Source: an uncultured Acidobacteriota bacterium
GTDB lineage: Bacteria; Acidobacteriota; Thermoanaerobaculia; UBA5066; Gp7-AA6
Direction of reading: 5' to 3'
NCBI GenBank assembly: GCA_963823185.1
Contig: CAWGKP010000006.1
Span: 215,113-279,112, forward strand
Length of the DNA stretch: 64,000 bases
Part shown: piece by piece, positions 4,006 to 22,738 of the stretch
Position numbering within the stretch: position 1 is the first letter of the stretch
Layout: every line of letters starts with the position of its first letter
Program-made: the position numbers and the translations under genes
The notes under the pieces: generated by a model
What the model saw: only the letters and a program-made list of their open reading frames with translations
Databases searched by the model: none
Told to the model about the DNA's origin: nothing

Positions 4006-6129
4006 GTGACGAGCGACGGGAGGACCGGCAGCTGGTCGAGCGCCCCGACGGGGCGATTCGCGGTTCGCCGCGTGCGCTCGGCTTTCGCCTCCTGGCGCGC
4101 CTCGATCCGGCCGTCGGACATCCTCCTCGCGAGCATCCTCGTCCTGCTCTCGGCCGGCCTCGGCGCGTTCCTGCTGGCGCGCGCCCACGCGGCCGCGAGC
4201 CTCGAGTTCGCCCAGCGGGCGCAGCGGCTCCACGCCGCGGTGATCGAGCGGCTCTCGAACCCCCTGGAGGACCTCGCGACGCTTTCGAGCTTCTTCGAGG
4301 CATCGGGCCGCGTGACACGCCGTCAGTTCCACATGCTGACGGACCCGATGCTCTCGCGCCACCGTCTCGTCTACGCGCTCGAGTGGCTGCCGTTCGTCCG
4401 CGACCGCGAGCGGATGTTCCAGGAGGCCGAGGCGCGCGCCGCCGGGCTCTCGACGTTCCGCATCTGGGAGACCGGGCCGGACGGCAAGCCCGTCGCGGCC
4501 GCGCGGCGGGAGTTCTACGTCCCGATCCAGTACATGGAGCCGCCCAACGTCCTCGCGCTCGGCCTCGACATCGCGTCCGACCAGGTTCGGTGGAGCTACG
4601 CCGAGAAGGCGCGCGACTCGGGCATGATGGTCGCCTCGCAGCCGTTCGTCCTCATCGAGGATCAAGGCCGGCCCGACCCGTCGCCGTCCATCGCGCTCTA
4701 CGGGCCGGTCTACGACGACGGCGACCCCGGCTCCGAGACCGCGCGCAGGGCCTCTCTCTCGGGCTTCGCCATGGCGGTCATTCGAGTCGCTCCGCTCGTG
4801 GACGCCGCCGCCGCCGCGGTGGACGCGACGGGCATCGCCTTCGTCCTGAGGGACGGCGACGTGCAGAATTCGGCGATCCTCGTCGAGCGCCCGCGCGGCG
4901 CGAAAGGCGTGACGCGCCGGTCGGACTTCGAGGCCGGGTTCCCGGTTCCCGTCGCGGACCGGCGCTGGACGCTCGACATCTTTGCGCTCCCGAAGGGATT
5001 CCTGCCGGCGAGCCGCGGTCCCATCGGCGTGGTAGTCGCCGGCGCGCTCACGGCGCTCCTCGGCTTCGTGACGCTGACTTCGCTGCGCACGATCTCGCGC
5101 CTGCGCCGCCAGGCGGAGAAGGTCGGGCCCTACCGCCTCGTCGCGCGCCTCGGGCACGGCGCCATGGGCGTCGTCTGGGAAGCGCGCCACGCGCTCCTGC
5201 GCCGGCCAACGGCCGTGAAGCTGCTCGCACCAGGGACGGAAGGGGAGCGCGCGCTGGCGCGCTTCGAGCGCGAGGTGCAGCTGACGGCGGGACTGACGCA
5301 CCCGAGCACGATCGCGATCTACGACTACGGACGCACGGCGGACGGGATCTTCTATTACGCGATGGAGCTGCTGCGCGGCATCAACCTGCTCCAGCTCGTC
5401 AACTTCGACGGGCCGCTGCCGCCGGCACGCGTCGTCCATCTGCTGCGCCAGGCCTGCGGCGCGCTCGCCGAGGCCCACGCCGCGGGCCTCATTCACCGCG
5501 ACATCAAGCCCGCCAACCTCATGATCTGCGTGTACGGCGGCATCCCCGACTTCCTGAAGATCCTCGATTTCGGTCTCGTCAAAGACATCGGCGCGGTCGA
5601 GCACTCGGCGGGAGGCGACGGCGCCGGGGCCGGAGCTCCCGCCCCGGACGACGCGTCTCTCTCCCACGACGGCTCGCTGCTCGGGACGCCGCTCTACATG
5701 GCGCCGGAGGGGATGAGCGACTCGTCCAAGGTGGACGCGCGCGCCGACATCTTCGCGCTCGGCGCGGTCGGGTACTTCCTCCTGACGGGGGGCTCTCCGT
5801 TTCCGGGGCGGACGGCGATCGAGGTCTTCCGCATGGAGCGGCGCGGCCCGCCGCCTCCGTTCGCGACCGCCGCACGGCACCCGGTGCCGCCGCGCCTCGA
5901 GGAGATCCTCTTTCGCTGCCTGGCCTTCGACCGCGAAGTGCGACCGGTTTCGGCCGAGGAGCTCGACGCGCTCCTCTCGGATTGCGGCGCGCCGCCGTGG
6001 AAGCTCGAGGAGAGCCGCGCCTGGTGGCGCGACCGGGGGCCCAAGGCCCTCGACACGGCGCGCGGAGAGCGGGAGGAGGAGGGGCGGATCATGTTCCTCT
6101 CGGCCGGAGACCGGGCCCGGACCGTCTAG
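4006..6129 (+). CDS. transmembrane receptor Ser/Thr protein kinase with extracytoplasmic CHASE-like sensor domain
   Basis: 707 aa. Two TM helices flank a CHASE-like block (LVYALEWLPFVRDRERMF...FYVPIQYMEPPNVLALGLDIASDQVR...). The C-terminal Hanks kinase has all motifs: GHGAMGVVW, AVKLL, HRDIKPANL, DFG, GTPLYMAPE. The exact start is uncertain. Confidence 0.85.
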   Translation: MTSDGRTGSWSSAPTGRFAVRRVRSAFASWRASIRPSDILLASILVLLSAGLGAFLLARAHAAASLEFAQRAQRLHAAVIERLSNPLEDLATLSSFFEASGRVTRRQFHMLTDPMLSRHRLVYALEWLPFVRDRERMFQEAEARAAGLSTFRIWETGPDGKPVAAARREFYVPIQYMEPPNVLALGLDIASDQVRWSYAEKARDSGMMVASQPFVLIEDQGRPDPSPSIALYGPVYDDGDPGSETARRASLSGFAMAVIRVAPLVDAAAAAVDATGIAFVLRDGDVQNSAILVERPRGAKGVTRRSDFEAGFPVPVADRRWTLDIFALPKGFLPASRGPIGVVVAGALTALLGFVTLTSLRTISRLRRQAEKVGPYRLVARLGHGAMGVVWEARHALLRRPTAVKLLAPGTEGERALARFEREVQLTAGLTHPSTIAIYDYGRTADGIFYYAMELLRGINLLQLVNFDGPLPPARVVHLLRQACGALAEAHAAGLIHRDIKPANLMICVYGGIPDFLKILDFGLVKDIGAVEHSAGGDGAGAGAPAPDDASLSHDGSLLGTPLYMAPEGMSDSSKVDARADIFALGAVGYFLLTGGSPFPGRTAIEVFRMERRGPPPPFATAARHPVPPRLEEILFRCLAFDREVRPVSAEELDALLSDCGAPPWKLEESRAWWRDRGPKALDTARGEREEEGRIMFLSAGDRARTV

Positions 6130-6201
6130 TTTCGGGGCCCTTGCGGCGGCGGCCACCGCCATAGAATACGCAGCAACCGTAAACCGAAGCGAGGCTCCGA
6201 C

Positions 6202-6516
6202 ATGTTGAGCGTAGACGCCGCTTTCGACCGCATCGGGTCCGCCCTCAAGCAGCGAGGCTACTCGCTCGCGAAAGAGGATCGTCCGCGCGAGGCGCCGGGC
6301 GACCGCTACGCCGTCTTCTCCTCGCAGGACATGTCCGTCCGCGTCTCCTGGAAGGAGAAGGCCCGCATTCTCGCGCTCGAGGTGGAGGCCGACGGCGCCT
6401 GGACCGAGTTCGCGCGGCGGGGCTTCGGGCCGACGGGGCTCGAGGAAACGGCCGTCGAGGTCCTCGTGCGCGCCGTGCGAAACGAGGTCGCCGAGACGTC
6501 GACGGACGCGGATTAA
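6202..6516 (+). CDS. hypothetical protein (104 aa)
   Basis: Balanced, non-Arg-biased composition. GAGG lies 7 nt upstream of the ATG. No family recognised. Confidence 0.55.
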   Translation: MLSVDAAFDRIGSALKQRGYSLAKEDRPREAPGDRYAVFSSQDMSVRVSWKEKARILALEVEADGAWTEFARRGFGPTGLEETAVEVLVRAVRNEVAETSTDAD

Positions 6517-13254: not shown

Positions 13255-15534
13255 ATGGCCGCGGAAGCCGTCACGATCTTCCTCTCGGCGTTCCTGCTCT
13301 TCGAGGTCGAGCCGCTGATCGCCAAGGCCATCCTGCCGTGGTTCGGCGGGGCCTCGTCGGTGTGGACGACCTGCCTCCTCTTCTTCCAGGCGGCGCTCCT
13401 CGGCGGTTATCTCTACGCGCACGTCCTTTCGCGCCTCTCGCCCCGCGCCGCGCGCGCCACGCACGCAACGCTCGTCGGGCTGTCGGTCCTCCTCCTCGTC
13501 GCCGCGGCGATCGGCGGACGCCCGCCGGTCCTGCCGCCGCTCGCCCTGCGTCCGGCCGATTCCGGGACGCCCGTCCTCCGTGTGCTCGCGGCGCTCGCGG
13601 CCGGCGTCGGGCTGCCGTTCTTCGTCCTGTCGTCCACGGGACCGCTCCTCCAGTCGTGGATCGCGCGGCGGCGTCCGCAGGCGCGCGTCTTCCGCCTCTT
13701 CGCGCTGTCGAATCTCGCGTCGCTCGCGGCGCTCCTCGCGTACCCGTTCGTGATCGAGCCGGCGCTCGGGCTCGCGCGCCAGGCGTGGATCTGGTCGGCG
13801 CTCTACGCGGCCTGCGCCCTTCTGCTCGTGGTCTGCGCTCTCCGCTCCGTCCCGGCGGCCGCCTCCGTCGCGACTTCTCCGGAGGGCGAAGCTCCGGATC
13901 CCGCCATCCGGCCCGCGCGGCGGATCTTCTGGCTGGCGCTCGCGGCGTGCCCGTCCGCGCTGCTCCTCGCCGCGACGAACCAGATGTGCCAGGAGGTCGC
14001 CGCGATTCCGTTCCTCTGGGTCCTGCCGCTCGGCTTGTACCTGCTCTCCTTCGTCCTCTGCTTCCAGAGCGACCGGCTCGCGCCGCGCGCCGTCTTCGGC
14101 CCGCTGCTCGTCGGCGCGCTCGGCTACGCGGCGTGGATCCTCTACCGCGGATACGGCGTGCCGATCCGTCAGCAGGTCCTCGCGGACGCGCTCGCGGTCT
14201 TCGCCGTCTGCATGGTCTGCCACGGCGAGCTCGCACGCAGCCGGCCCGCGCCGCGGCAGGCGACGGCGTTCTACCTGATGGTCGCGGCGGGCGGCGCTCT
14301 CGGCGCCGTCTTCGTCGCGGTCGTCGCGCCGCTCCTCTTCCCGGCCTTCTGGGAATTCCACCTGCTGCTCTGGCTCTCGGCGGTCGCGGCGCTCTTCGCG
14401 CTCGTGCGCGACACGGACTCGTGGCTTCATCGCGGGCGCGTCTGGCCGGCGCTCCTCACGCTCCTCGCGGTCGCGGTCCTCGCGTGGCAGATCCGGGATC
14501 CGGATCTGCTCGCGTCGCTCGCCGCGCGCGCGAAACGCGCCGTCGCCTCCGGTCCGGGCGCCGTCGCGGCGCTCGCGGCCGCGGCGCTCGCCGCCTTCGT
14601 CGCGCCGCGCTTCCTCCGGATGCGCGCGCGCCCGTATTTCGTCGCGGCGTGTCTGGCCGGGGCGGCGGGCTTCCTGGGTTATGCGCTCGTGGCCGACGTC
14701 CGCGCGTATCTGCGCGGGGCGATCGCGCTGTCGCGCAACTTCTACGGGGTGTTGACGATCGAGGCGCTCGATTCGCCGGATCCTCTGCTCTCGCGCCTGT
14801 CTCTCCGCAACGGCCGTATCGTGCACGGCTCCCAGTACCAATCGTCCGGGAAACGGCGCGAGCCGACGACCTATTACGGGCGGGCGAGCGGCATCGGATT
14901 GCTCCTCGACCATCACCCGGGACGCGCGCAGGAACGGCCGCTCCGCGTCGGCGTCGTGGGCCTCGGGACGGGAACGCTCGCGGCGTACGGGCGGCCCGGC
15001 GACGTGTTCCGCTTCTACGACATCAATCCCGACGTCGTGCGTCTCTCGAGCGGCCCGGCGCCGCGCTTCACGTACCTCGCGGACAGCCGCGCCGGGATCG
15101 AGATCGCGGCGGGCGACGCGCGCCTCTCGCTCGAGCGCGAGCTGGCGTCGGGGGCGCCGCCGCTCGACGTGCTCGCGGTGGACGCGTTCACGAGCGACGC
15201 GATTCCGGTGCACCTGCTGACGCGCGAGGCGATCGCGCTGTACGTGGCGCGCCTGCGCCCCGACGGCGTGCTCGCACTGCACCTCTCGAACCGGCAGCTC
15301 GATCTGCTTCCGGTGGCGAAGGCGGCGGCCGACGCCCTCTCGCTCGAGGCGTCGCTCGTCGACACGAACGACGACGGCGAGGGTTGCTGGGGCGCGACGT
15401 GGGTGCTGCTCGCGCGCGAGTCGGCGCCGCTCGAGCCGCCGGAGATCGACGAGGCGTCCGCGGATCTGCCCGAATCGCCCCGCGTGCGCCTCTGGACGGA
15501 CGACTACAGCAACCTCTTTCAGGTGCTGAAGTGA
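13255..15534 (+). CDS. fused polytopic membrane domain / spermidine-synthase-like (class I methyltransferase fold) protein
   Basis: 759 aa. The N-terminal ~480 aa are multi-TM. The C-terminus carries VGVVGLGTGTLAAYG and DVLAVDAFTSDAIPVHLLT, as in spermine/spermidine synthase family proteins. Confidence 0.85.
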   Translation: MAAEAVTIFLSAFLLFEVEPLIAKAILPWFGGASSVWTTCLLFFQAALLGGYLYAHVLSRLSPRAARATHATLVGLSVLLLVAAAIGGRPPVLPPLALRPADSGTPVLRVLAALAAGVGLPFFVLSSTGPLLQSWIARRRPQARVFRLFALSNLASLAALLAYPFVIEPALGLARQAWIWSALYAACALLLVVCALRSVPAAASVATSPEGEAPDPAIRPARRIFWLALAACPSALLLAATNQMCQEVAAIPFLWVLPLGLYLLSFVLCFQSDRLAPRAVFGPLLVGALGYAAWILYRGYGVPIRQQVLADALAVFAVCMVCHGELARSRPAPRQATAFYLMVAAGGALGAVFVAVVAPLLFPAFWEFHLLLWLSAVAALFALVRDTDSWLHRGRVWPALLTLLAVAVLAWQIRDPDLLASLAARAKRAVASGPGAVAALAAAALAAFVAPRFLRMRARPYFVAACLAGAAGFLGYALVADVRAYLRGAIALSRNFYGVLTIEALDSPDPLLSRLSLRNGRIVHGSQYQSSGKRREPTTYYGRASGIGLLLDHHPGRAQERPLRVGVVGLGTGTLAAYGRPGDVFRFYDINPDVVRLSSGPAPRFTYLADSRAGIEIAAGDARLSLERELASGAPPLDVLAVDAFTSDAIPVHLLTREAIALYVARLRPDGVLALHLSNRQLDLLPVAKAAADALSLEASLVDTNDDGEGCWGATWVLLARESAPLEPPEIDEASADLPESPRVRLWTDDYSNLFQVLK

Positions 15535-16103
15535 TCGCGCGGGAAGATCTCGAGCGCTCGCTGTCGGCGTATCGCGCCGAGGACGCCTCGGAAGAGGAGT
15601 CGCTCGCGCGGATCCGCGCGCTCGTGCGGGACGCGCCGGACCCCTTCACGCGCGCCGTGCGCGATCACGTCACGGCGAGCGCGGTCGTGGCGCGGCCGGA
15701 CGGCGGCGCCTTCCTCCTCGTGTACCACCGGCGGCTCGAGCGCTGGCTGCAGCCCGGCGGCCACGTCGAGCCGGACGACGCATCGGTCTTCGAGGCCGCC
15801 CGCCGCGAGGCGCGCGAGGAGACGGGCGTCGAGGACCTCGCCGCGCCGGTCGGCGGCCGCGTGCTCGACGTGGACGTGCACCCGATCCCCGCGCGCCCCG
15901 ACCGGCCGGCGCACGTCCACTTCGACCTGCGCCACCTGCTCACGACGACGGCGACGCGCTTCTCCGTGGCGGCCGAGGAAGTTCGTCGCGCCGACTGGTT
16001 CACCTTCGAGGAGGCGCTCGCGGCGGGTGTCGATGCCTCGCTCTCGCGCGCGCTCCGAAAGGCCCGTGCCCTCCTCGGGGCGGAACCGCGCCGGCCCGGT
16101 TAG
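15531..16103 (+). CDS. NUDIX hydrolase
   Basis: C-terminal part of track ORF 13338..16103. Nudix box GGHVEPDDASVFEAARREAREETGV. The GTG start overlaps the upstream stop (GTGA). Confidence 0.85.
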   Translation: MIAREDLERSLSAYRAEDASEEESLARIRALVRDAPDPFTRAVRDHVTASAVVARPDGGAFLLVYHRRLERWLQPGGHVEPDDASVFEAARREAREETGVEDLAAPVGGRVLDVDVHPIPARPDRPAHVHFDLRHLLTTTATRFSVAAEEVRRADWFTFEEALAAGVDASLSRALRKARALLGAEPRRPG

Positions 16104-16801
16104 GGCGTCGCGGCAGCCGTCGGGACCGGAGTCCGTCCCTCGAGCGCCTGGATCGGGTGGCGCAGCATCTCCGGCGAAACCTTCGGCTCCTTGCGCAGGA
16201 AGAAGAGGTAGAGGATGCCGACGCCGATGACGAAGACGCCGGTCGCGCGGTTGATGGTGACGAGCGTCTCGTAGCGGAATCGCCCGCGAAAGAAGTTCGA
16301 CAGCCCGACGAGGAACGCGAACCAGGAGCTCGATCCGATCAGCACTCCCGCCACGAGCTCGGCCGTCAGGAACGAGTGGCCGTGGACGGCGCCGATGCCG
16401 AACGTCGCGAAGACCGCGACGAAGGCGATGAATGTCATGGGGTTGGTCAGCGTCAGAACGAGCGTCGAGAAGAAGTCCGCAGCGAGACCGCGGTCCATGT
16501 CCACTTCCTCGCGCTTGGGCGGCTTCAGAAAGAGCAGTCTCGCTCCGAGGACGAGCAGGACCGCGCCGCCGACGCGCTGGAAGATCAGGCGGTGATCCAT
16601 GAGGAAAGATGAGATGACCGTGACTCCGAAGGCCGCGAGCGTTCCGTAGAGCGCGTCGGCGACCGCGGCGCCGAGTCCGGAGACGAGCCCGGCGAGCTTG
16701 CCGTGCGAGATCGTCCGCTGGACGCAGAGGACAGCGATGGGACCGACGGGCGCCGCGAGGCAGAACCCGACGATCAGTCCCTTGACGAAGAGGTTCTCCA
16801 T
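16100..16801 (-). CDS. LysE/RhtB family amino-acid exporter
   Basis: 233 aa with 6 TM helices. N-terminal FVKGLIVGFCLAAPVGPIAVLCVQRT and central TNPMTFIAFVAVF are typical of the LysE family. Confidence 0.9.
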   Translation of the reverse strand: MENLFVKGLIVGFCLAAPVGPIAVLCVQRTISHGKLAGLVSGLGAAVADALYGTLAAFGVTVISSFLMDHRLIFQRVGGAVLLVLGARLLFLKPPKREEVDMDRGLAADFFSTLVLTLTNPMTFIAFVAVFATFGIGAVHGHSFLTAELVAGVLIGSSSWFAFLVGLSNFFRGRFRYETLVTINRATGVFVIGVGILYLFFLRKEPKVSPEMLRHPIQALEGRTPVPTAAATP

Positions 16802-16835
16802 CCGCGGCGGAGCCTATAACGGGGCAAGCAGCCGG

Positions 16836-17876
16836 CTAGCCGTACCACTCCGCTTCGCGCATCAGGCGGAGCCACTCGCCGAGATCCGTCGCGAGGACGT
16901 ACTCGCAGAGGCCGAGGTCGGAGAAGACGTCGTCGGGCGGCCCGTCGGGATCGAGCCGCTTGCGGATCGTCGCGAGCGACGATCCTTTGGCGAGCGAGCG
17001 GTTCTCGTTCCTTCCGAACTCGTTCGCGCTCCGGTAGGTCCGCGCGGCGGCCCACAGGGCCGGGATCCCGAACGAGACGGCGAGCGCGATGCTCTTCGCC
17101 TGGTTCCAATCCTCTCCCGCGTGCTCGGCGGCGACGTGGAAGACGGCGAACGCGACGCTCGTGAAGAACACGAGCGGGAGCCAGCCGGGCCGACGGATCC
17201 AGCGCTTCTCGATCCGCTCGGCGGCGCGCGCGAAGTAGTCGATCTGGACGTCGAGCCGCTTGCGCCGGTAGTACGCGACGATCACGAGCCGCCGGGCGCG
17301 GTCGAGGGCTTCGCAGGATGCGGCGGCCGGGCGCGGCGGGATGGCGTCCTCCGCGTGTGCGAGGGCGGGAAGGTCGTTCTCGCCGAGCGCCATGATCGCG
17401 TCGCGCGCCGTGACCAAGTCCGTCTCGCTCTTCGGCGTCGGGCCACCCGCGCACCAGAAGTCCGGCTCGACGAGCTTCTGGAACTTGAGAAGCCGCAGCC
17501 GCTCCGCCTTGTACCGCGCGATCAGCCAGGCCTTGTGGAACTCGAAGACGAGTCCGACGGCAACCAGCGCCGTCGCGACGAGCGAAAACGCCGCCTCCGC
17601 GAAGAGCCGCCACTCGTAAGGCGTCGCCGGCGGAAAGAGGGGCCCCAGCCGGACCTCCTCGGGGAAGGCGATGTTCACCGCCGCGAGCGCGAGCCCGAGC
17701 GCTCCGACGACACCCGCGCCGCCGGTGAAAAGCCGGTGGCGCCATTGATTGGCGTTCGCGGCGCCGTCGGCCTTTTCGTACGCGGGAACGAGCTCCCGTG
17801 CGCAGAAGGAGAGGTACTTGCCGAGCGGGCCCTCGTCGGTCAGGTCGCGCCCCTCGTCGTGGACGTCGTCCGTCAT
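16836..17876 (-). CDS. 4-TM membrane protein built from two SLATT/DUF4231-like repeats
   Basis: 346 aa. Each half has a basic lead-in helix, a 2-TM hairpin (LFTGGAGVVGALGLALAAVNIAF + FAEAAFSLVATALVAVGLVFEF; WLPLVFFTSVAFAVFHVAA + IALAVSFGIPALWAAARTY) and an amphipathic basic helix (HKAWLIARYKAERLRLLKF; RSANEFGRNENRSLAKG). ATGA overlaps the RyR gene. The CDS call is solid. The family call is pattern-based. Confidence 0.75.
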   Translation of the reverse strand: MTDDVHDEGRDLTDEGPLGKYLSFCARELVPAYEKADGAANANQWRHRLFTGGAGVVGALGLALAAVNIAFPEEVRLGPLFPPATPYEWRLFAEAAFSLVATALVAVGLVFEFHKAWLIARYKAERLRLLKFQKLVEPDFWCAGGPTPKSETDLVTARDAIMALGENDLPALAHAEDAIPPRPAAASCEALDRARRLVIVAYYRRKRLDVQIDYFARAAERIEKRWIRRPGWLPLVFFTSVAFAVFHVAAEHAGEDWNQAKSIALAVSFGIPALWAAARTYRSANEFGRNENRSLAKGSSLATIRKRLDPDGPPDDVFSDLGLCEYVLATDLGEWLRLMREAEWYG

Positions 17877-18169
17877 CGCGCGGGCGCCGCCTTCGCGATC
17901 CGGTAGCCGAGCACGACGATCGTCTTCAGGGTCTCGATCGCCGTGCGCCGGTCGTATTCCTTCTCGCTCTCCGAGAGCGACTCGTACGGCACGAGGCTCG
18001 GGTGCTCCTTCTTGGCGTCGTCGCGCCGCGGGCCGTAGCGCCAGCCGTCGGCGAGGCGCTGCCGCGCCCAGTTCTCGTGCGTGTTGCGGGCGAGCAGCTC
18101 GGTCAGCTCGACGACGTCCGGCGGGAGCCGGACGCCCGAGGTGTCTCTCGGCGCGGGGCGATAGTCCAC
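17873..18169 (-). CDS. stand-alone RyR (ryanodine-receptor repeat) domain protein, 98 aa
   Basis: The tail of track ORF 17873..19129(-) reads LLARNTHENWARQRLADGWRYGPRRDDAKKEHPSLVPYESLSESEKEYDRRTAIETLKTIVVLGY, which matches the RyR-domain consensus as I remember it. AGGAGG-N5-GTG start at 18169. Confidence 0.8.
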   Translation of the reverse strand: MDYRPAPRDTSGVRLPPDVVELTELLARNTHENWARQRLADGWRYGPRRDDAKKEHPSLVPYESLSESEKEYDRRTAIETLKTIVVLGYRIAKAAPAR

Positions 18170-18216
18170 GGCGGCCTCCTCTTTTCTTTCGGCAGCGCAG
18201 CCGGCGGCGTCCCCGG

Positions 18217-19188
18217 TCAGTTCACCTTGAATTTGAAGCCGTTGGGCGCCTGGATCTCGAAGGACTTCTTGTTGTTGCGCGGCGGAGGTTTCGGCGCGAC
18301 GGGCGCCGGGCGGATGTCGAACGCGAAGCGATAGGGCGCGCTCCTCTTCCCGTCGTTGTCCACGAGCGTGGCGTCGAGGACGACGTGCTCGGTGAGCGGC
18401 GAGGAGAGCCAGAAGGCGTAGCTGCCCGACGTGCGGCCGGTCATCCCCTCGAGCTCCATCGTCCACGGGCGGAAGGACGCGCCCTGCACCGGCTCGAATT
18501 TGACGAGCGCGGCGTCGCCCTTCTTGTCGGTGAAGTGGAGCACGAAGTTTCCGCGCTGGCCCTGAACGATCGGCGTCGGTGGAACCTCGATCGACTCGAT
18601 CTTGGGCGAGTGGCCGCGCGTGGCGAGAAAAGCGCCGCCGCCGACGAGGAGCGCCGCGACGGCCACGAGGCCGAGCGCGCGCGTCGAGACGCCGGAGGGC
18701 TTTGCCGCGGGAGCCGCGGGCGGGATCGCGGGAGCGGAGATCGACGGCCGGGATACCGCGACGCCCGTCTCGCTCGCGCGGCTCGGGCGGGCGAGCAGGA
18801 GTTTGACCGTCTCGGCGAGCCGATCGAGGTGCGCCTCCACCGAAGGCGTGTACGCGTCCAGCCAGTGCGAAGAGCTGATGAAGTACTCGAGCGTCTTGCC
18901 GAGCGGGACGTCCTCGATGCGCAGCGGGATGATCGCGACGCCCTTGTGCACGGCGCGCTCGACCTCCCGCTTGATCTGCGGCGACTTGTTCGCCGCGGCC
19001 GAGAAGACGAGCACCATGACCTTGCTCGCGCCGATGGCGTCCACGATCGCGGCGCCCCAGTCGAGACCGGGCAGGATGTCGCGCGGCGCGATCCAGCAGC
19101 GCACGCCATGGCGCTCGAGCGTGGCACACACGGCGTCCGCGACCGGCTTGTCGGCCGTCGAGTAGCTGACGAAGACCTCGTGCGCCAT
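18217..19188 (-). CDS. TIR-domain protein with single TM helix and C-terminal extracytoplasmic beta-rich domain
   Basis: From MAHEVFVSYSTADKPVADAVCATLERHGVRCWIAPRDILPGLDWGAAIVDAIGASKVMVLVFSAAANKSPQIKREVERA (TIR_2-type signature). This is followed by a Pro/Ala linker, a TM helix (ALGLVAVAALLVGGGAFLA) and a ~130-aa beta-rich C-terminal domain. I prefer ATG 19188 to the track start at 19230. Confidence 0.85.
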   Translation of the reverse strand: MAHEVFVSYSTADKPVADAVCATLERHGVRCWIAPRDILPGLDWGAAIVDAIGASKVMVLVFSAAANKSPQIKREVERAVHKGVAIIPLRIEDVPLGKTLEYFISSSHWLDAYTPSVEAHLDRLAETVKLLLARPSRASETGVAVSRPSISAPAIPPAAPAAKPSGVSTRALGLVAVAALLVGGGAFLATRGHSPKIESIEVPPTPIVQGQRGNFVLHFTDKKGDAALVKFEPVQGASFRPWTMELEGMTGRTSGSYAFWLSSPLTEHVVLDATLVDNDGKRSAPYRFAFDIRPAPVAPKPPPRNNKKSFEIQAPNGFKFKVN

Positions 19189-19265
19189 GGTCTGTCGAGT
19201 CGAGAGCGCGGGGATCTTATAACCGCGCACCCGGCACGAAGGGGCTACGGGGCGGTGCGGAGAGA

Positions 19266-19478
19266 CTACGGCGCCGCCCGGTGCATCACGTCCGGCTCGA
19301 AGACCTCCTCGATCAGCTTCCCGAAGACCTGGGCGATGCCGAACGCGAGCGGCAGGCTCGGGTCGTAGCGGCCGGTCTCGATCGCGTTGACGGTCTGGCG
19401 CGAGACGCCGAGCCGCTCCGCCAGATCCGCCTGCGACCAGTCGCGCTCGGCACGTAAAACCCGGAGGCGGTTCTTCAT
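19266..19478 (-). CDS. XRE-family helix-turn-helix transcriptional regulator (70 aa)
   Basis: MKNRLRVLRAERDWSQADLAERLGVSRQTVNAIETGRYDPSLPLAFGIAQVFGKLIEEVF. ATGA overlaps the upstream membrane-protein gene. Confidence 0.9.
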   Translation of the reverse strand: MKNRLRVLRAERDWSQADLAERLGVSRQTVNAIETGRYDPSLPLAFGIAQVFGKLIEEVFEPDVMHRAAP

Positions 19479-20062
19479 CGGTAGCGACGGTTCGCGAGAA
19501 CCATTCCGACGCCGCACGTGAGGACGAGGACTCCCGCCATCCAGACCCAGTTCAATCTCGGTAGACCAGCGGCTTCGAGCGCGGCGCCGGCCAGGGCGGC
19601 GAACAGCGAAACGACGAACCCGAATGCGAGCGCCTCCTGGGCGATGCGGCGCTGCAACTCGTCGGCGCGGCGCGCGATGCGGATCGTGCTCCAGGCGAAG
19701 AGAGCAGCGGGAGCGAGCGGCAGCAGCGCGGCGAAGAGCGCGAGAGGCGATCCCTTCGGCGCCTTCTCGTGGAGGCCGAGAAAGAAGATGAAGCTGAGCA
19801 TGCCGGCTTCCATCAGGGCCGCATCGTCCTGGCGCCTCCACATGCGGAGGATGGCCCACGCCGCCAGCGCGAGCCCGGCCACCGAAACGACACCGAACGA
19901 AAGCGCGTAGCTCGACCCCGGCACCCGCAATGCGCGCCCGGTGGCCACGAACGCGAGGATGAAGACGGCGGCGCCAATTCCCATCAGGATCAGGTCCGGT
20001 CCCGACTCCTTCATCGGCCTCACTCCGGAGGGACCGCAAATGCCCAATTCGACATGAGACAT
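19475..20062 (-). CDS. small polytopic membrane protein paired with the XRE regulator
   Basis: About 4 TM helices. Start chosen at ATG 20062 (AGGA 6 nt upstream). ATG 20014 and the track start 20110 are alternatives. Confidence 0.7.
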   Translation of the reverse strand: MSHVELGICGPSGVRPMKESGPDLILMGIGAAVFILAFVATGRALRVPGSSYALSFGVVSVAGLALAAWAILRMWRRQDDAALMEAGMLSFIFFLGLHEKAPKGSPLALFAALLPLAPAALFAWSTIRIARRADELQRRIAQEALAFGFVVSLFAALAGAALEAAGLPRLNWVWMAGVLVLTCGVGMVLANRRYR

Positions 20063-20162
20063 CGGTTTCCTCGCTTTCTGGATCATGGATAGGTCGTGCA
20101 TGCTTGGCAAAATGTAAAGTTATCTTGTCATACGTGGCCGACGAATCGTTGTTTTAGGATCA

Positions 20163-20191
20163 TTGACTTACGCCTTATTTACGCCTAACGT
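20163..20191 (+). promoter_or_regulatory. sigma70-like promoter with embedded direct-repeat operator upstream of imuA
   Basis: TTGACT-17 nt-TAACGT. The spacer carries AyTTACGCCT twice at 11-nt phasing. The first 25 nt match 38698..38722 (upstream of dnaE2) at 24/25 positions. Confidence 0.65.
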
Positions 20192-20217
20192 GGCCCTCCT
20201 TCGATTCGGAGGTCCGC

Positions 20218-21072
20218 ATGGGCGCATCACAGGCTCTCGCGATCGAGCGGTTGCTCGCGGAGAGCCTTGGCTCCGCGAAGAAGAAGGACGGCGTCCTGCT
20301 CGCCGGCCTCGGCGCCCGGCTCCGTCGCGCCTCGGAGCTCGCCGCCCCGCTCGAAACGCCGGGCGCGCTGCCGACGGCGCTCGCGCCGCTCGACCGCCTG
20401 CTTCTCGGAGGGCTCCCGAAGGGACGGCTCGTCGAGCTCTCGGGGCCGCGTTCGTGCGGGCGCTTCTCGCTCGGAATCGCGGCGCTCGCGGCGGCGACGT
20501 CGAGCGGCCTCGCCGCGGCGCTCGTGGATCTCGGCGATCACCTCGACCCGCAGGCGGCCGAGGGCGCGGGCGTGGACCTGCGATATCTCCTCTGGGCGCG
20601 GCCTCGGCGCGTCCGGGAAGCGCTCGCGGCGGCCGAGATGCTGCTCGCCGCGGGCTTCCCGCTCGTCGTCGCGGACCTGGGGCTCGCGGCGCGCACGCGC
20701 GGAACGCCCGACGCCGCGTGGGTGCGCCTGGCGCGCGCGGCCGCGGCGCAGGGGGCGGCGCTCCTTCTTTCGACGCCGTGGCGCGCGAGCGGCATCGCCG
20801 CCGACGCGGTCGTCTCGGCTTCCCGCGCGCATCCGGTCTGGCGGGGAAGCGGCCGCGCGCCGCGCCTTCTCGCCGGTCTCGCCTCGCGGCTGATGCTCGA
20901 GAAGCTCGGCCGCGCGACACCGGGAGCGGCCGTGCCGTCGGTTTTCCACGCCGCGGAGGCGCTCCCGGTGTTTCCGCCCCAGGCGTCTTTCGCCGCCTAC
21001 GAGGCGATTCGCGAAATTCCCGGGAACCCGTCGAATCCGGCATTGAAGCTCATGAGCCGGACGATCCCCTGA
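20218..21072 (+). CDS. imuA: ImuA-like RecA/SulA-fold protein of the imuA-imuB-dnaE2 mutagenesis system
   Basis: 284 aa. LDRLLLGGLPKGRLVELSGPRSCGRFSLGIAALAAA...ALVDLGDHLDPQAAEGAGVDLRYLLWARP is the typical ImuA core. It lies directly upstream of imuB, with GGAGG-N5-ATG. Confidence 0.75.
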   Translation: MGASQALAIERLLAESLGSAKKKDGVLLAGLGARLRRASELAAPLETPGALPTALAPLDRLLLGGLPKGRLVELSGPRSCGRFSLGIAALAAATSSGLAAALVDLGDHLDPQAAEGAGVDLRYLLWARPRRVREALAAAEMLLAAGFPLVVADLGLAARTRGTPDAAWVRLARAAAAQGAALLLSTPWRASGIAADAVVSASRAHPVWRGSGRAPRLLAGLASRLMLEKLGRATPGAAVPSVFHAAEALPVFPPQASFAAYEAIREIPGNPSNPALKLMSRTIP

Positions 21073-21094
21073 CCTCGACTCATTTAGAAGTCAA

Positions 21095-22738
21095 GTGACC
21101 CGAATGCGCCTCGCGTGCGTCCTCGTTCCGCTCTTCCCTCTTGCGGCCCGTCTGCGCAGCGAGCCGGACCTCAAAGGAGAGGCCGTCGTCCTCGTCGAAG
21201 GCAACGGTAACGCCGCGCGCGTGATCGCCGCGTCGCGTCCGGCGCGCCGCGCCGGCGTGGATGCGGGCATGACGCTGCCCCAGGCGCGGGCGCTCGTGCC
21301 GAAGCTGCTGGCGCGCGCGCGAGACCGCGAGAGCGAGCGCGCGGCGCAGGAGGCGATGCTCGAAGTCGCCGACGCGTTCTCGCCGCGCGTCGAGGACGGC
21401 GGCGAGGGCGTGATGTACCTCGACCTCGAGGGCATCCCGGCGCTGTCGGGCGACCACAAGCACAAGGGCCGCCCCGACGGTGATTCGGCGCTGAAGGTAG
21501 GGACGGGGGTGAGCGCCGGGCGAACCCGGCGCTTGTCGCGCTCTGCGAGCGCTCGGTGCGTCCCCGCCGGTGATCCGGAACCCGAGCGCGCGCTCGGCCG
21601 CGACCTCATCGCCGCCGTCGAGAAGACGGGCCTGCCCGCGCGCGCCGGCATCGCCTCCTCCAAGCTCGCCGCACGCGTCGCGGCGGGGCTGCCCGATTCG
21701 CCGGGAGTCGTGCCTCCGGGTGAAGAAGCGGAATTCCTCGCGCCGCTGCCGCTCGCGCGCCTGTCGCCGGAGATCGGGATCTCCGAGACGCTCGGGAGAT
21801 GGGGTCTGCGCTCGATCGGAGATTTCGCGAAGCTGCCTCCCGGCGAGATCGAGAGCCGGCTCGGGTCGCTCGGGCGGCGGCTGCACGCGTCCGCACGCGG
21901 GCGGGATCTCCGACCGCTCGAGCCGCGCCTGCCGGCGCTCTGTCTCTCCGAGGGCCTGGAGCTCGAGTGGCCGCTCGTCACGCTCGAGCCCTTTCTCTTC
22001 GTCGGCCACGCGGCGCTCGAACGGCTCACGGCGCGCCTCGACGGGCTGGGGCTCGCCTGCCGCCGGCTCGAGCTGACGATGACGCTCGATCCCGACGGCT
22101 GCGACGCGCGCGCGATCGCGCTGCCCGCGCCGACGCGCGACGTGAAGACGCTGCTGACGCTCGTGCGCCTGGAGCTCGAGGCGCGGCCTCCCGGGTCGCC
22201 CGTCGTCGGCTTCACTTTCGCCGCGCATCCCGACAAGCCGCGCCGCGCGCAACTTGCCCTCTTCGGGCCGCCGGCGCTGTCGCCCGACCGCCTCGCCACG
22301 ACGATCGCGCGTCTGGCCGCGCTGCTCGGCGCCGACCGCGTCGTCTCGCCCCGCGCCGCCGACGGCCACCGCCCCGAGCGCTTCGCCTCCTCCGGATACG
22401 AGCCGCCGCCTCCTCCCGAGATCGCGCGGCCGCCGCGCGCGGGACGCGGGCTCCTCGCCGTGCGCGTGCTGCGTCCGCCGGTGGAGCTCGAGGTCATGGA
22501 ATCTCCGGGAGATCCGGCCGGCCGGCCGGCCCGCGTCCGGTCCGCGCGCGACGCGACCCCCGAGATCGCGGGATCGGTGCGCGTGGCGGCGGGGCCCTGG
22601 TCCATGGAAGAAGGCTGGTGGTCCGACGCCCCTGCCGCGCGCGACTACTGGGACGTGGAGCTCGCCGAAGGCGGCCTCTACCGCCTCTACCGCGACCGCG
22701 CGTCGCGCGCGTGGTTCGCCGACGGCGTCTACGATTAG
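21095..22738 (+). CDS. imuB: ImuB, Y-family DNA-polymerase-like protein
   Basis: 547 aa. N-terminal [15 protein letters not shown]...VVLVEG...[17 protein letters not shown] and the C-terminal [19 protein letters not shown]...WFADGVYD tail are typical of ImuB. Confidence 0.85.

Follow-up and report, generated by a model that had tools for sequence, protein, structure and literature searches.

Introduction

Thoeris types V–XI were defined in a recent preprint (10.64898/2025.12.03.692087, December 2025). Type VII, which was validated as a defense system, consists of the TIR protein ThsB and the SLATT effector ThsH and uses canonical cyclic ADP-ribose (cADPR) as its signal, and type X consists of a TIR protein and an ion channel; the text of that preprint and its tables, as far as consulted, make no mention of RyR. 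It was reported separately that the phage protein RyDEP, which carries a RyR/R12-type domain, acts hydrolytically on 2'cADPR and on 3'cADPR, with H75, W78, H100, and D117 as key residues, and that other phage homologs are nanomolar sponges (PMC13232231, May 2026). The phage protein gp68 (“RyR Tad”) sponges 3'cADPR, 2'cADPR, and cADPR (10.64898/2026.06.04.730250, June 2026). Adenine nucleotides and dantrolene are ligands of the animal R12 pocket (cited in PMC13232231; 10.64898/2026.06.04.730250). Here we describe a small RyR gene, flanked by a TIR gene on one side and a membrane-protein gene on the other, in a 64,000-nucleotide stretch of DNA from an uncultured Acidobacteriota bacterium (contig CAWGKP010000006.1, positions 215,113 to 279,112; referred to as the window, in which all coordinates below are given unless a locus or genome is named).

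A first-pass annotation of the window had treated the RyR gene and the membrane-protein gene as a two-gene unit and had stated that the function of the RyR repeat outside animal channels is unknown. The latter statement is outdated, as the phage RyR proteins bind or hydrolyze cADPR-type signals (PMC13232231; 10.64898/2026.06.04.730250), and these preprints point to the NAD-derived nucleotides that the annotation had suggested as candidate ligands. From comparative sequence analysis we propose, with about even confidence for and against, that TIR, RyR, and SLATT-type genes form a three-gene module akin to type VII Thoeris, in which the RyR protein (P0001) is the subunit that reads the nucleotide signal. 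A literature search combining RyR and SLATT returned unrelated papers only, and in the literature searched no paper was found on a host-encoded RyR in a TIR operon.

The TIR–RyR–SLATT locus

The three genes are all carried on the minus strand in the order TIR, RyR, SLATT-type membrane protein, with the following features:

18217..19188, minus strand, TIR gene (P0003): TIR_2 domain, Pro/Ala-rich linker, one transmembrane (TM) helix, and an outer domain
18170..18216, minus strand, TIR–RyR intergenic spacer of 47 nt, containing the RyR ribosome-binding site (read from the sequence)
17873..18169, minus strand, RyR gene (P0001): stand-alone single R12-type RyR domain of 98 amino acids (aa)
17873..17876, minus strand, ATGA overlap: RyR stop TGA at 17875-17873 and membrane-protein ATG at 17876-17874
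16836..17876, minus strand, membrane effector gene (P0002): 346 aa, all-helical, four TM helices, divergent SLATT-superfamily member

RyR, TIR_2, and SLATT-like genes each occur only once in the 4.68-Mb genome, and the three single copies adjoin.

The open reading frame (ORF) at 17873..18169 is a real gene coding for one complete RyR domain. P0001 covers positions 1-90 of the 91 in the Pfam RyR profile (PF02026), with an E-value of 1e-34 and a score of 119 bits, where the cut-off is 27.4. This bears out the first-pass description of the product as essentially one RyR repeat. In a PDB search P0001 matched all four repeats of mammalian RyR1-3 (75 bits against RyR2 residues 862-950), and its residues 1-93 matched the bacterial ~100-aa chains 3NRT, 4N05, and 6UAG with E-values of 1e-29 to 1e-30. 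About 540 homologs of roughly 94 aa share 72-96% identity with it, and PADLOC gave a marginal match only (PDC-M03B, E-value 0.019). Between the GTG start codon at 18169-18167 and an upstream AGGAGG (18180-18175) lie 5 nt, which bears out the strong ribosome-binding site of its own that had been assigned to the gene. The TIR stop codon TGA (18219-18217) lies 47 nt before this GTG. The RyR frame is open further upstream, to 19129; the 98-aa start is the correct one, because the homologs begin at the equivalent M/V-D-Y.

Five residues of P0001 (H31, W34, R49, H56, and D73) are invariant across 22 homologs. RyDEP residues H75/W78/H100/D117 correspond to H31/W34/H56/D73 of P0001 with identical spacing, and the H/D catalytic dyad of RyDEP is retained as H31/D73. 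Direct alignment with gp68, which is 35-38% identical over the domain, placed H129/W132/K147/H154/D171 at H31/W34/R49/H56/D73 and indicated that five of the six gcADPR-binding residues of gp68 are conserved in P0001. These correspondences suggest that H31/W34/R49/H56/D73 form a putative nucleotide pocket.

The membrane protein P0002 has hydrophobic helices at about residues 48-70, 86-108, 232-253, and 257-279. Its N-terminal half matched DUF4231 with an E-value of 2e-4 and 22.1 bits, below the Pfam cut-off of 24.7, and its C-terminal half matched SLATT_1 with an E-value of 0.011 and 16.1 bits, below the cut-off of 26.3; the NCBIfam SLATT_1 model gave 9e-5. The P0002 family as a whole is a divergent branch of the SLATT superfamily by its sequence profiles, because among 37 of its members SLATT_1 matched 16 (best E-value 1.6e-12), DUF4231 matched 13, and SLATT_3 matched 9. 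The family counts 469 representatives at E ≤ 1e-30 in a library clustered at 50%, and is marked by a conserved C-terminal EWLRLMxEAEWYG motif and by the invariant cytoplasmic arginines R121, R128, R279, and R289. The AlphaFold2 model of P0002 is all-helical (pLDDT 89.7, pTM 0.88), with the TM helices predicted to form two two-TM hairpins. A fold search of this model against the PDB gave no significant match (best E-value 0.15, TM-score ≤ 0.25), and no defense-system model or curated Thoeris effector model in PADLOC and NCBIfam matched P0002. An internal duplication of P0002 was considered and rejected, as hhalign of the N-terminal against the C-terminal half gave a probability of 1.4%. Since the halves have no detectable similarity, the description of P0002 as two SLATT units rests solely on the separate sub-threshold Pfam matches.

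The third protein, P0003, matched Pfam TIR_2 over residues 19-138 with an E-value of 2e-23. Its likely start is the ATG at 19188 (MAHEVF...), with an alternative in-frame GTG at 19230. The protein begins with a cytoplasmic TIR_2 domain, which the Pro/Ala-rich linker and a single TM helix connect to an extracytoplasmic domain of ~130 aa at the C-terminus. In an alignment of 27 module TIRs, all 27 share the catalytic-type Glu89 and the F20/S22/G55 motifs without exception. The outer ~130-aa domain, in the C-terminal half of P0003 (18217-18700), has no Pfam match, and the topology is receptor-like.

Conservation of the gene arrangement

A locus scan with one genome per species yielded 79 RyR loci from Acidobacteriota, Planctomycetota, Verrucomicrobiota, Armatimonadota, Cyanobacteriota, Bacillota, and one archaeon. 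The RyR domain is stand-alone in 60 loci and fused to a longer protein in 19. A P0002-type protein is encoded directly 3' of RyR in 32 of the 79 loci, and where such an adjacent pair is unfused (30 loci) the junction is a 4-nt ATGA or GTGA overlap in 22. The overlap and the association with a 4-TM membrane protein, both proposed from the window, are seen across phyla. The first-pass annotation had further argued for stoichiometric co-production and probably a complex. The gene coupling is supported by the 22 overlaps and by the fusions described below, which together suggest that RyR and P0002 probably form a physical complex.

Of the 32 loci, 26 have a TIR_2 gene right beside the pair: in 11 it lies upstream of RyR, as in the window, and in 15 downstream of the membrane-protein gene. 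TIR remnants were detected in two further loci. The RyR–membrane-protein pair stays adjacent whichever side the TIR gene occupies. The pair proposed at first thus stands, and its unit has to be enlarged to include the TIR gene at 18217..19188. The upstream TIRs are orthologs of P0003, and the downstream TIRs belong to a different TIR_2 class. The tails attached to the TIR domains in the module loci include a TM helix plus beta-rich domain, a ~200-aa tail, FGE-sulfatase, TPR, NACHT, and kinase-TPR; the downstream-type TIRs of other loci carry a different tail, of ~200 aa, compared to P0003.

RyR and the SLATT part are also found in one polypeptide, with RyR N-terminal (P0124/P0125, P0127/P0128, P0129, P0196, P0250, P0256, P0309, and P0312). 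At least eight divergent RyR–SLATT fusions were identified. The example in Candidatus Methanoperedens (P0124/P0125, with P0124 from L051) is annotated as plasmid-borne, and the others have mutual identity below 50%. The structure model of a RyR–SLATT fusion folds confidently. Fused genes also adjoin TIR_2 genes, one with a 4-nt overlap and one divergently transcribed. In L077, RyR is paired with a canonical SLATT_3+SLATT_1 protein. Across loci, identity to the window proteins was 61-96% for RyR, 31-50% for the membrane partner, and 25-36% for the downstream-type TIR. By these sequence comparisons RyR is by far the slowest-evolving part of the module.

Some copies of the locus are incomplete. 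Only TIR remnants of 47-57 aa follow the membrane gene in L004 (7335-7478) and L011 (7360-7533), L012 has the RyR–membrane pair without a TIR, and in L046 (6390-7552) the membrane gene is broken up, leaving two ORFs. These four loci look like decaying copies in which the RyR–membrane pair outlives the TIR.

The RyR domain in other prokaryotic settings

The RyR domain was also detected in other architectures. RyR–TPR-S–nucleotide cyclase fusions account for 18 of the 79 loci. They are proteins of ~760 aa in which an N-terminal RyR is combined with a TPR-S sensor repeat and with a nucleotide cyclase domain of class III (L028:6001-8283, L075:6001-8238, L062:5893-8109, and 15 more). Their hosts are cyanobacteria, Verrucomicrobiota, and Pyrinomonadaceae, and a TIR-WD40 gene adjoins in several (L065, L071, and L078). 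RyR is further found at the C-terminus of K+-channel-like (RCK) proteins of the Ion_trans_2–TrkA_N type and within STAND/AAA (STAND NTPase) proteins. Elsewhere it adjoins TIR-WD40, TIR-NACHT-TPR, TIR-FGE-sulfatase, and TIR-STING genes. Taken together, the distribution of RyR is, at the sequence level, the pattern of an input (ligand-reading) domain in nucleotide-signaling conflict systems.

In an armatimonadotal locus (L042:2476-8216), a TIR_2-WD40 gene is followed by a stand-alone RyR gene and then by a gene for an Ion_trans_2 + TrkA_N protein with a C-terminal RyR. The same RyR-tagged K+-channel-like protein occurs in L035 (6340-8079) and L045 (2924-4747). The TIR beside the RyR-tagged channel in L042 may be related to type X Thoeris, in which a TIR is combined with an ion channel. 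In Pelotomaculum (L052:1015-4372), a stand-alone RyR gene precedes a TIR-STING gene (CAP12-PCTIR_TIR + prok_STING) and a gene for a protein of 587 aa that has a SLATT-like part at its C-terminus. The RyR genes of L024, L026, L027, and L030 form an orphan clade nested within the Acidobacteriota clade of SLATT-linked RyRs, and in each case the next gene codes for a 510-aa PMT-like protein with ~10 TM helices.

Genomic site

The module occupies a slot between a LysE-type gene (16100-16801) and an XRE gene (19266-19478). This slot is variable in the genus, with unrelated cargo that ranges from 0.9 to 9.6 kb in length. The intervals compared were:

window 16801-19266
G050:C16:18376-21083
G051:C122:16210-17685
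G056:C1:2226305-2235894
G046:C127:5791-6704

The cargo of the congeners consists of peroxiredoxin-like (AhpC/TSA-like), beta-lactamase-fold, MliC/META, GGDEF, and methyltransferase genes. No phage genes were found in the slot. The module is patchily distributed, being present in 32 of 105 genomes of the family and 5 of 12 of the genus, and in many Thermoanaerobaculia the same D-serine-dehydratase-like gene adjoins it. The XRE gene and the membrane-protein gene upstream (19266-20110) were considered as parts of the module and rejected, as they are retained in congeners that do not have it.

A promoter/terminator scan of 16000-20300 gave nothing informative. Judged only from ORF translations and from DNA matches to congeners, the flank at 13255-16103 codes for a NUDIX protein and for a large membrane protein resembling spermidine synthase, and that at 20218-22738 contains imuA-imuB.

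Discussion

The data suggest, at the sequence level, a Thoeris-like TIR–SLATT signaling module in which a host RyR is the third constant component. In the mechanism that we favor, the membrane-anchored TIR protein (18217..19188) would be triggered by a phage infection, or by a cue from the envelope that its outer domain senses, and would then convert NAD+ to a signal that is presumably of the cyclic ADP-ribose type. RyR, probably acting as a homodimer like its phage and Bacteroides homologs, with helices 1 and 4 as the expected dimer contact, would bind this signal in the H31/W34/R49/H56/D73 pocket. Its synthesis would keep a constant proportion to that of the 4-TM SLATT-type protein (16836..17876), and the two are probably bound to each other; with its ligand in place, RyR would switch this partner to an oligomeric, membrane-breaching state. 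The resulting breach might stop growth or kill the infected cell, in keeping with a putative role in anti-phage defense. A sensor function of RyR is favored because the fusions place it where SLOG, Macro, STING, and SAVED sensors sit in other effectors. For the defense role speak the patchy distribution, the one plasmid copy, the variable TIR tails, and the precedent of type VII Thoeris.

Several observations weigh against this reading. P0002 itself scores below the Pfam cut-offs for SLATT families, and P0003 has no pairwise similarity (E-value 1.5) to the TIR domain of a validated type VII ThsB, only one of which was compared. In the tree, 25 of 33 SLATT-linked RyRs fall in one Acidobacteriota clade, so the locus counts overstate the number of independent events; only two or more changes of the RyR partner label are required by branches with good support. 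The independence of the association rests on scattered outliers (Terriglobia, Gemmataceae, Acidobacteriaceae, and the archaeon), on the gene-order variants, and on the fusions. The orphan clade mentioned above (L024, L026, L027, and L030; RyR at ~6001-6285) has neither SLATT nor TIR in its 12-kb loci. In the defense-island test, which follows the criterion by which the Thoeris types were discovered (neighborhood of other defense genes), the slot cargo in G050, G051, and G056 was not defense-related, and the module lies outside a recognizable defense island. The characterized stand-alone RyR proteins are phage sponges or a glycosidase, with no activator among them (PMC13232231; 10.64898/2026.06.04.730250), and the type VII effector ThsH is thought to bind cADPR itself (10.64898/2025.12.03.692087). 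In the same way, the invariant arginines of P0002 may form a ligand pocket of its own.

The last points lead to the main rival explanation, which is possible although we consider it the less probable account: the host RyR would be a built-in buffer or off-switch that sequesters or hydrolyzes a cADPR-type signal, sets the threshold and ends signaling, much as ring nucleases do in type III CRISPR, and the SLATT protein would sense the signal directly. Besides the activities of the phage proteins, the proposed cADPR binding by ThsH-type effectors, and the arginines of P0002, the retention of the RyDEP dyad as H31/D73 fits this explanation, and so does the slow evolution of RyR, as expected of a protein constrained mainly by an invariant small ligand. 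However, RyR is coupled and repeatedly fused to the effector and not to the TIR, and a covalent sponge on each effector molecule would be an odd design, though self-limiting effectors exist. The fusions of RyR to channels, cyclases, and STAND NTPases are explained more simply by an input-domain role, and RyR–SLATT pairs persist with a TIR remnant or none (L004, L011, and L012). In another arrangement, which seems improbable to us, RyR would hold the SLATT protein inactive in the manner of an antitoxin until the TIR product frees it. In the classic antitoxin–toxin layout, as here, the gene for a small soluble protein comes first, and its stop codon overlaps the start codon of a gene for a membrane protein that may be toxic; the fusions would fit auto-inhibition equally well. 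Pairs that lack an intact TIR would then be permanently silenced, which fits decay and is uninformative, and nothing in the sequence data sets restraint apart from activation. Indeed, the sequence data do not separate the activation, buffer, and restraint models.

Two further explanations concern the role of the locus as a whole. The receptor-like TIR might sense an envelope or environmental cue in a physiological, non-immune pathway, with RyR and the SLATT protein adjusting ion flux or membrane state. The topology of P0003 with its outer domain would suit such a pathway, as would the position of the locus outside a defense island, the metabolic or stress-related nature of the alternative slot cargo, the D-serine-dehydratase-like neighbor, and the PADLOC results (no model for P0002 and a marginal one for P0001). 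We nevertheless hold it to be rather unlikely, given the patchy distribution and the Methanoperedens plasmid copy, the NACHT, TPR, WD40, and kinase tails of the TIRs, which are of the conflict-system kind, the TIR-STING and STAND neighbors of other RyR loci, and the experimental demonstration that TIR plus SLATT is a defense system (10.64898/2025.12.03.692087). That RyR merely lies between the TIR and membrane-protein genes by chance was also considered, as the genome is compact and GC-rich and overlapping stops and starts are common in it. The comparative data refute this almost completely: adjacency and overlap are conserved across phyla, at least eight divergent fusions exist, and three singleton genes stand side by side in the 4.68-Mb genome.

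If RyR is the signal-reading subunit, a host RyR locked to a TIR and a membrane effector would give the missing physiological context of the domain, as a receptor of a cellular signal and not only a viral decoy. This would explain why phages carry the RyR fold, and Thoeris-type immunity would gain a new class of sensor in addition to SLOG, Macro, STING, and SAVED. A direct action of cADPR on ryanodine receptors has been disputed for decades. We raise tentatively, and with considerable doubt, the wider idea that R12 is an ancient receptor for TIR-made cADPR: prokaryotes would have wired TIR, signal, RyR, and a pore or K+ channel in series, phages would have stolen R12 as a sponge, and animal RyRs would have inherited it. 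If this were true, R12 would be the long-sought direct cADPR site on RyR channels. P0001 offers a small, soluble, and highly conserved bacterial protein for direct tests of ligand specificity and of coupling to a pore.

Comparison with known systems

Like Thoeris systems in general, the locus has a TIR with an intact catalytic glutamate beside an effector, in conserved adjacency. The closest parallel is type VII, where the TIR enzyme likewise adjoins a SLATT-superfamily membrane effector and an NAD-derived signal is presumed to open an assembly that breaches the membrane; its two-gene layout is reproduced where fused RyR–SLATT genes lie beside TIR genes. The differences are that type VII has two genes and no RyR, whereas here RyR is always present, either separate or fused N-terminally, and that P0003 is of the TIR_2 class and membrane-anchored.

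With the phage proteins RyDEP and gp68, P0001 shares the PF02026 domain, the stand-alone or nearly stand-alone format, the H/W/H/D pocket residues, and the link to TIR/Thoeris signaling. The phage genes lie in anti-defense loci and shut host signaling off, whereas the gene for P0001 is chromosomal and co-operonic with a TIR and an effector, in an arrangement that recurs in 32 loci. The Bacteroides thetaiotaomicron “putative ryanodine receptor” (3NRT, 4N05, and 6UAG) is also a single bacterial RyR domain of ~100 aa; it is a structural-genomics target whose entries, as searched, carry no functional assignment. The R12 domain of animal RyR1-3 is a tandem repeat pair in a Ca2+ channel of 5000 aa, whereas P0001 is a single repeat on a protein of its own with a 4-TM SLATT-type partner. 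The animal domain is nevertheless the best sequence match, and it is attached to an ion channel, as is RyR in the prokaryotic Ion_trans_2–TrkA_N–RyR proteins.

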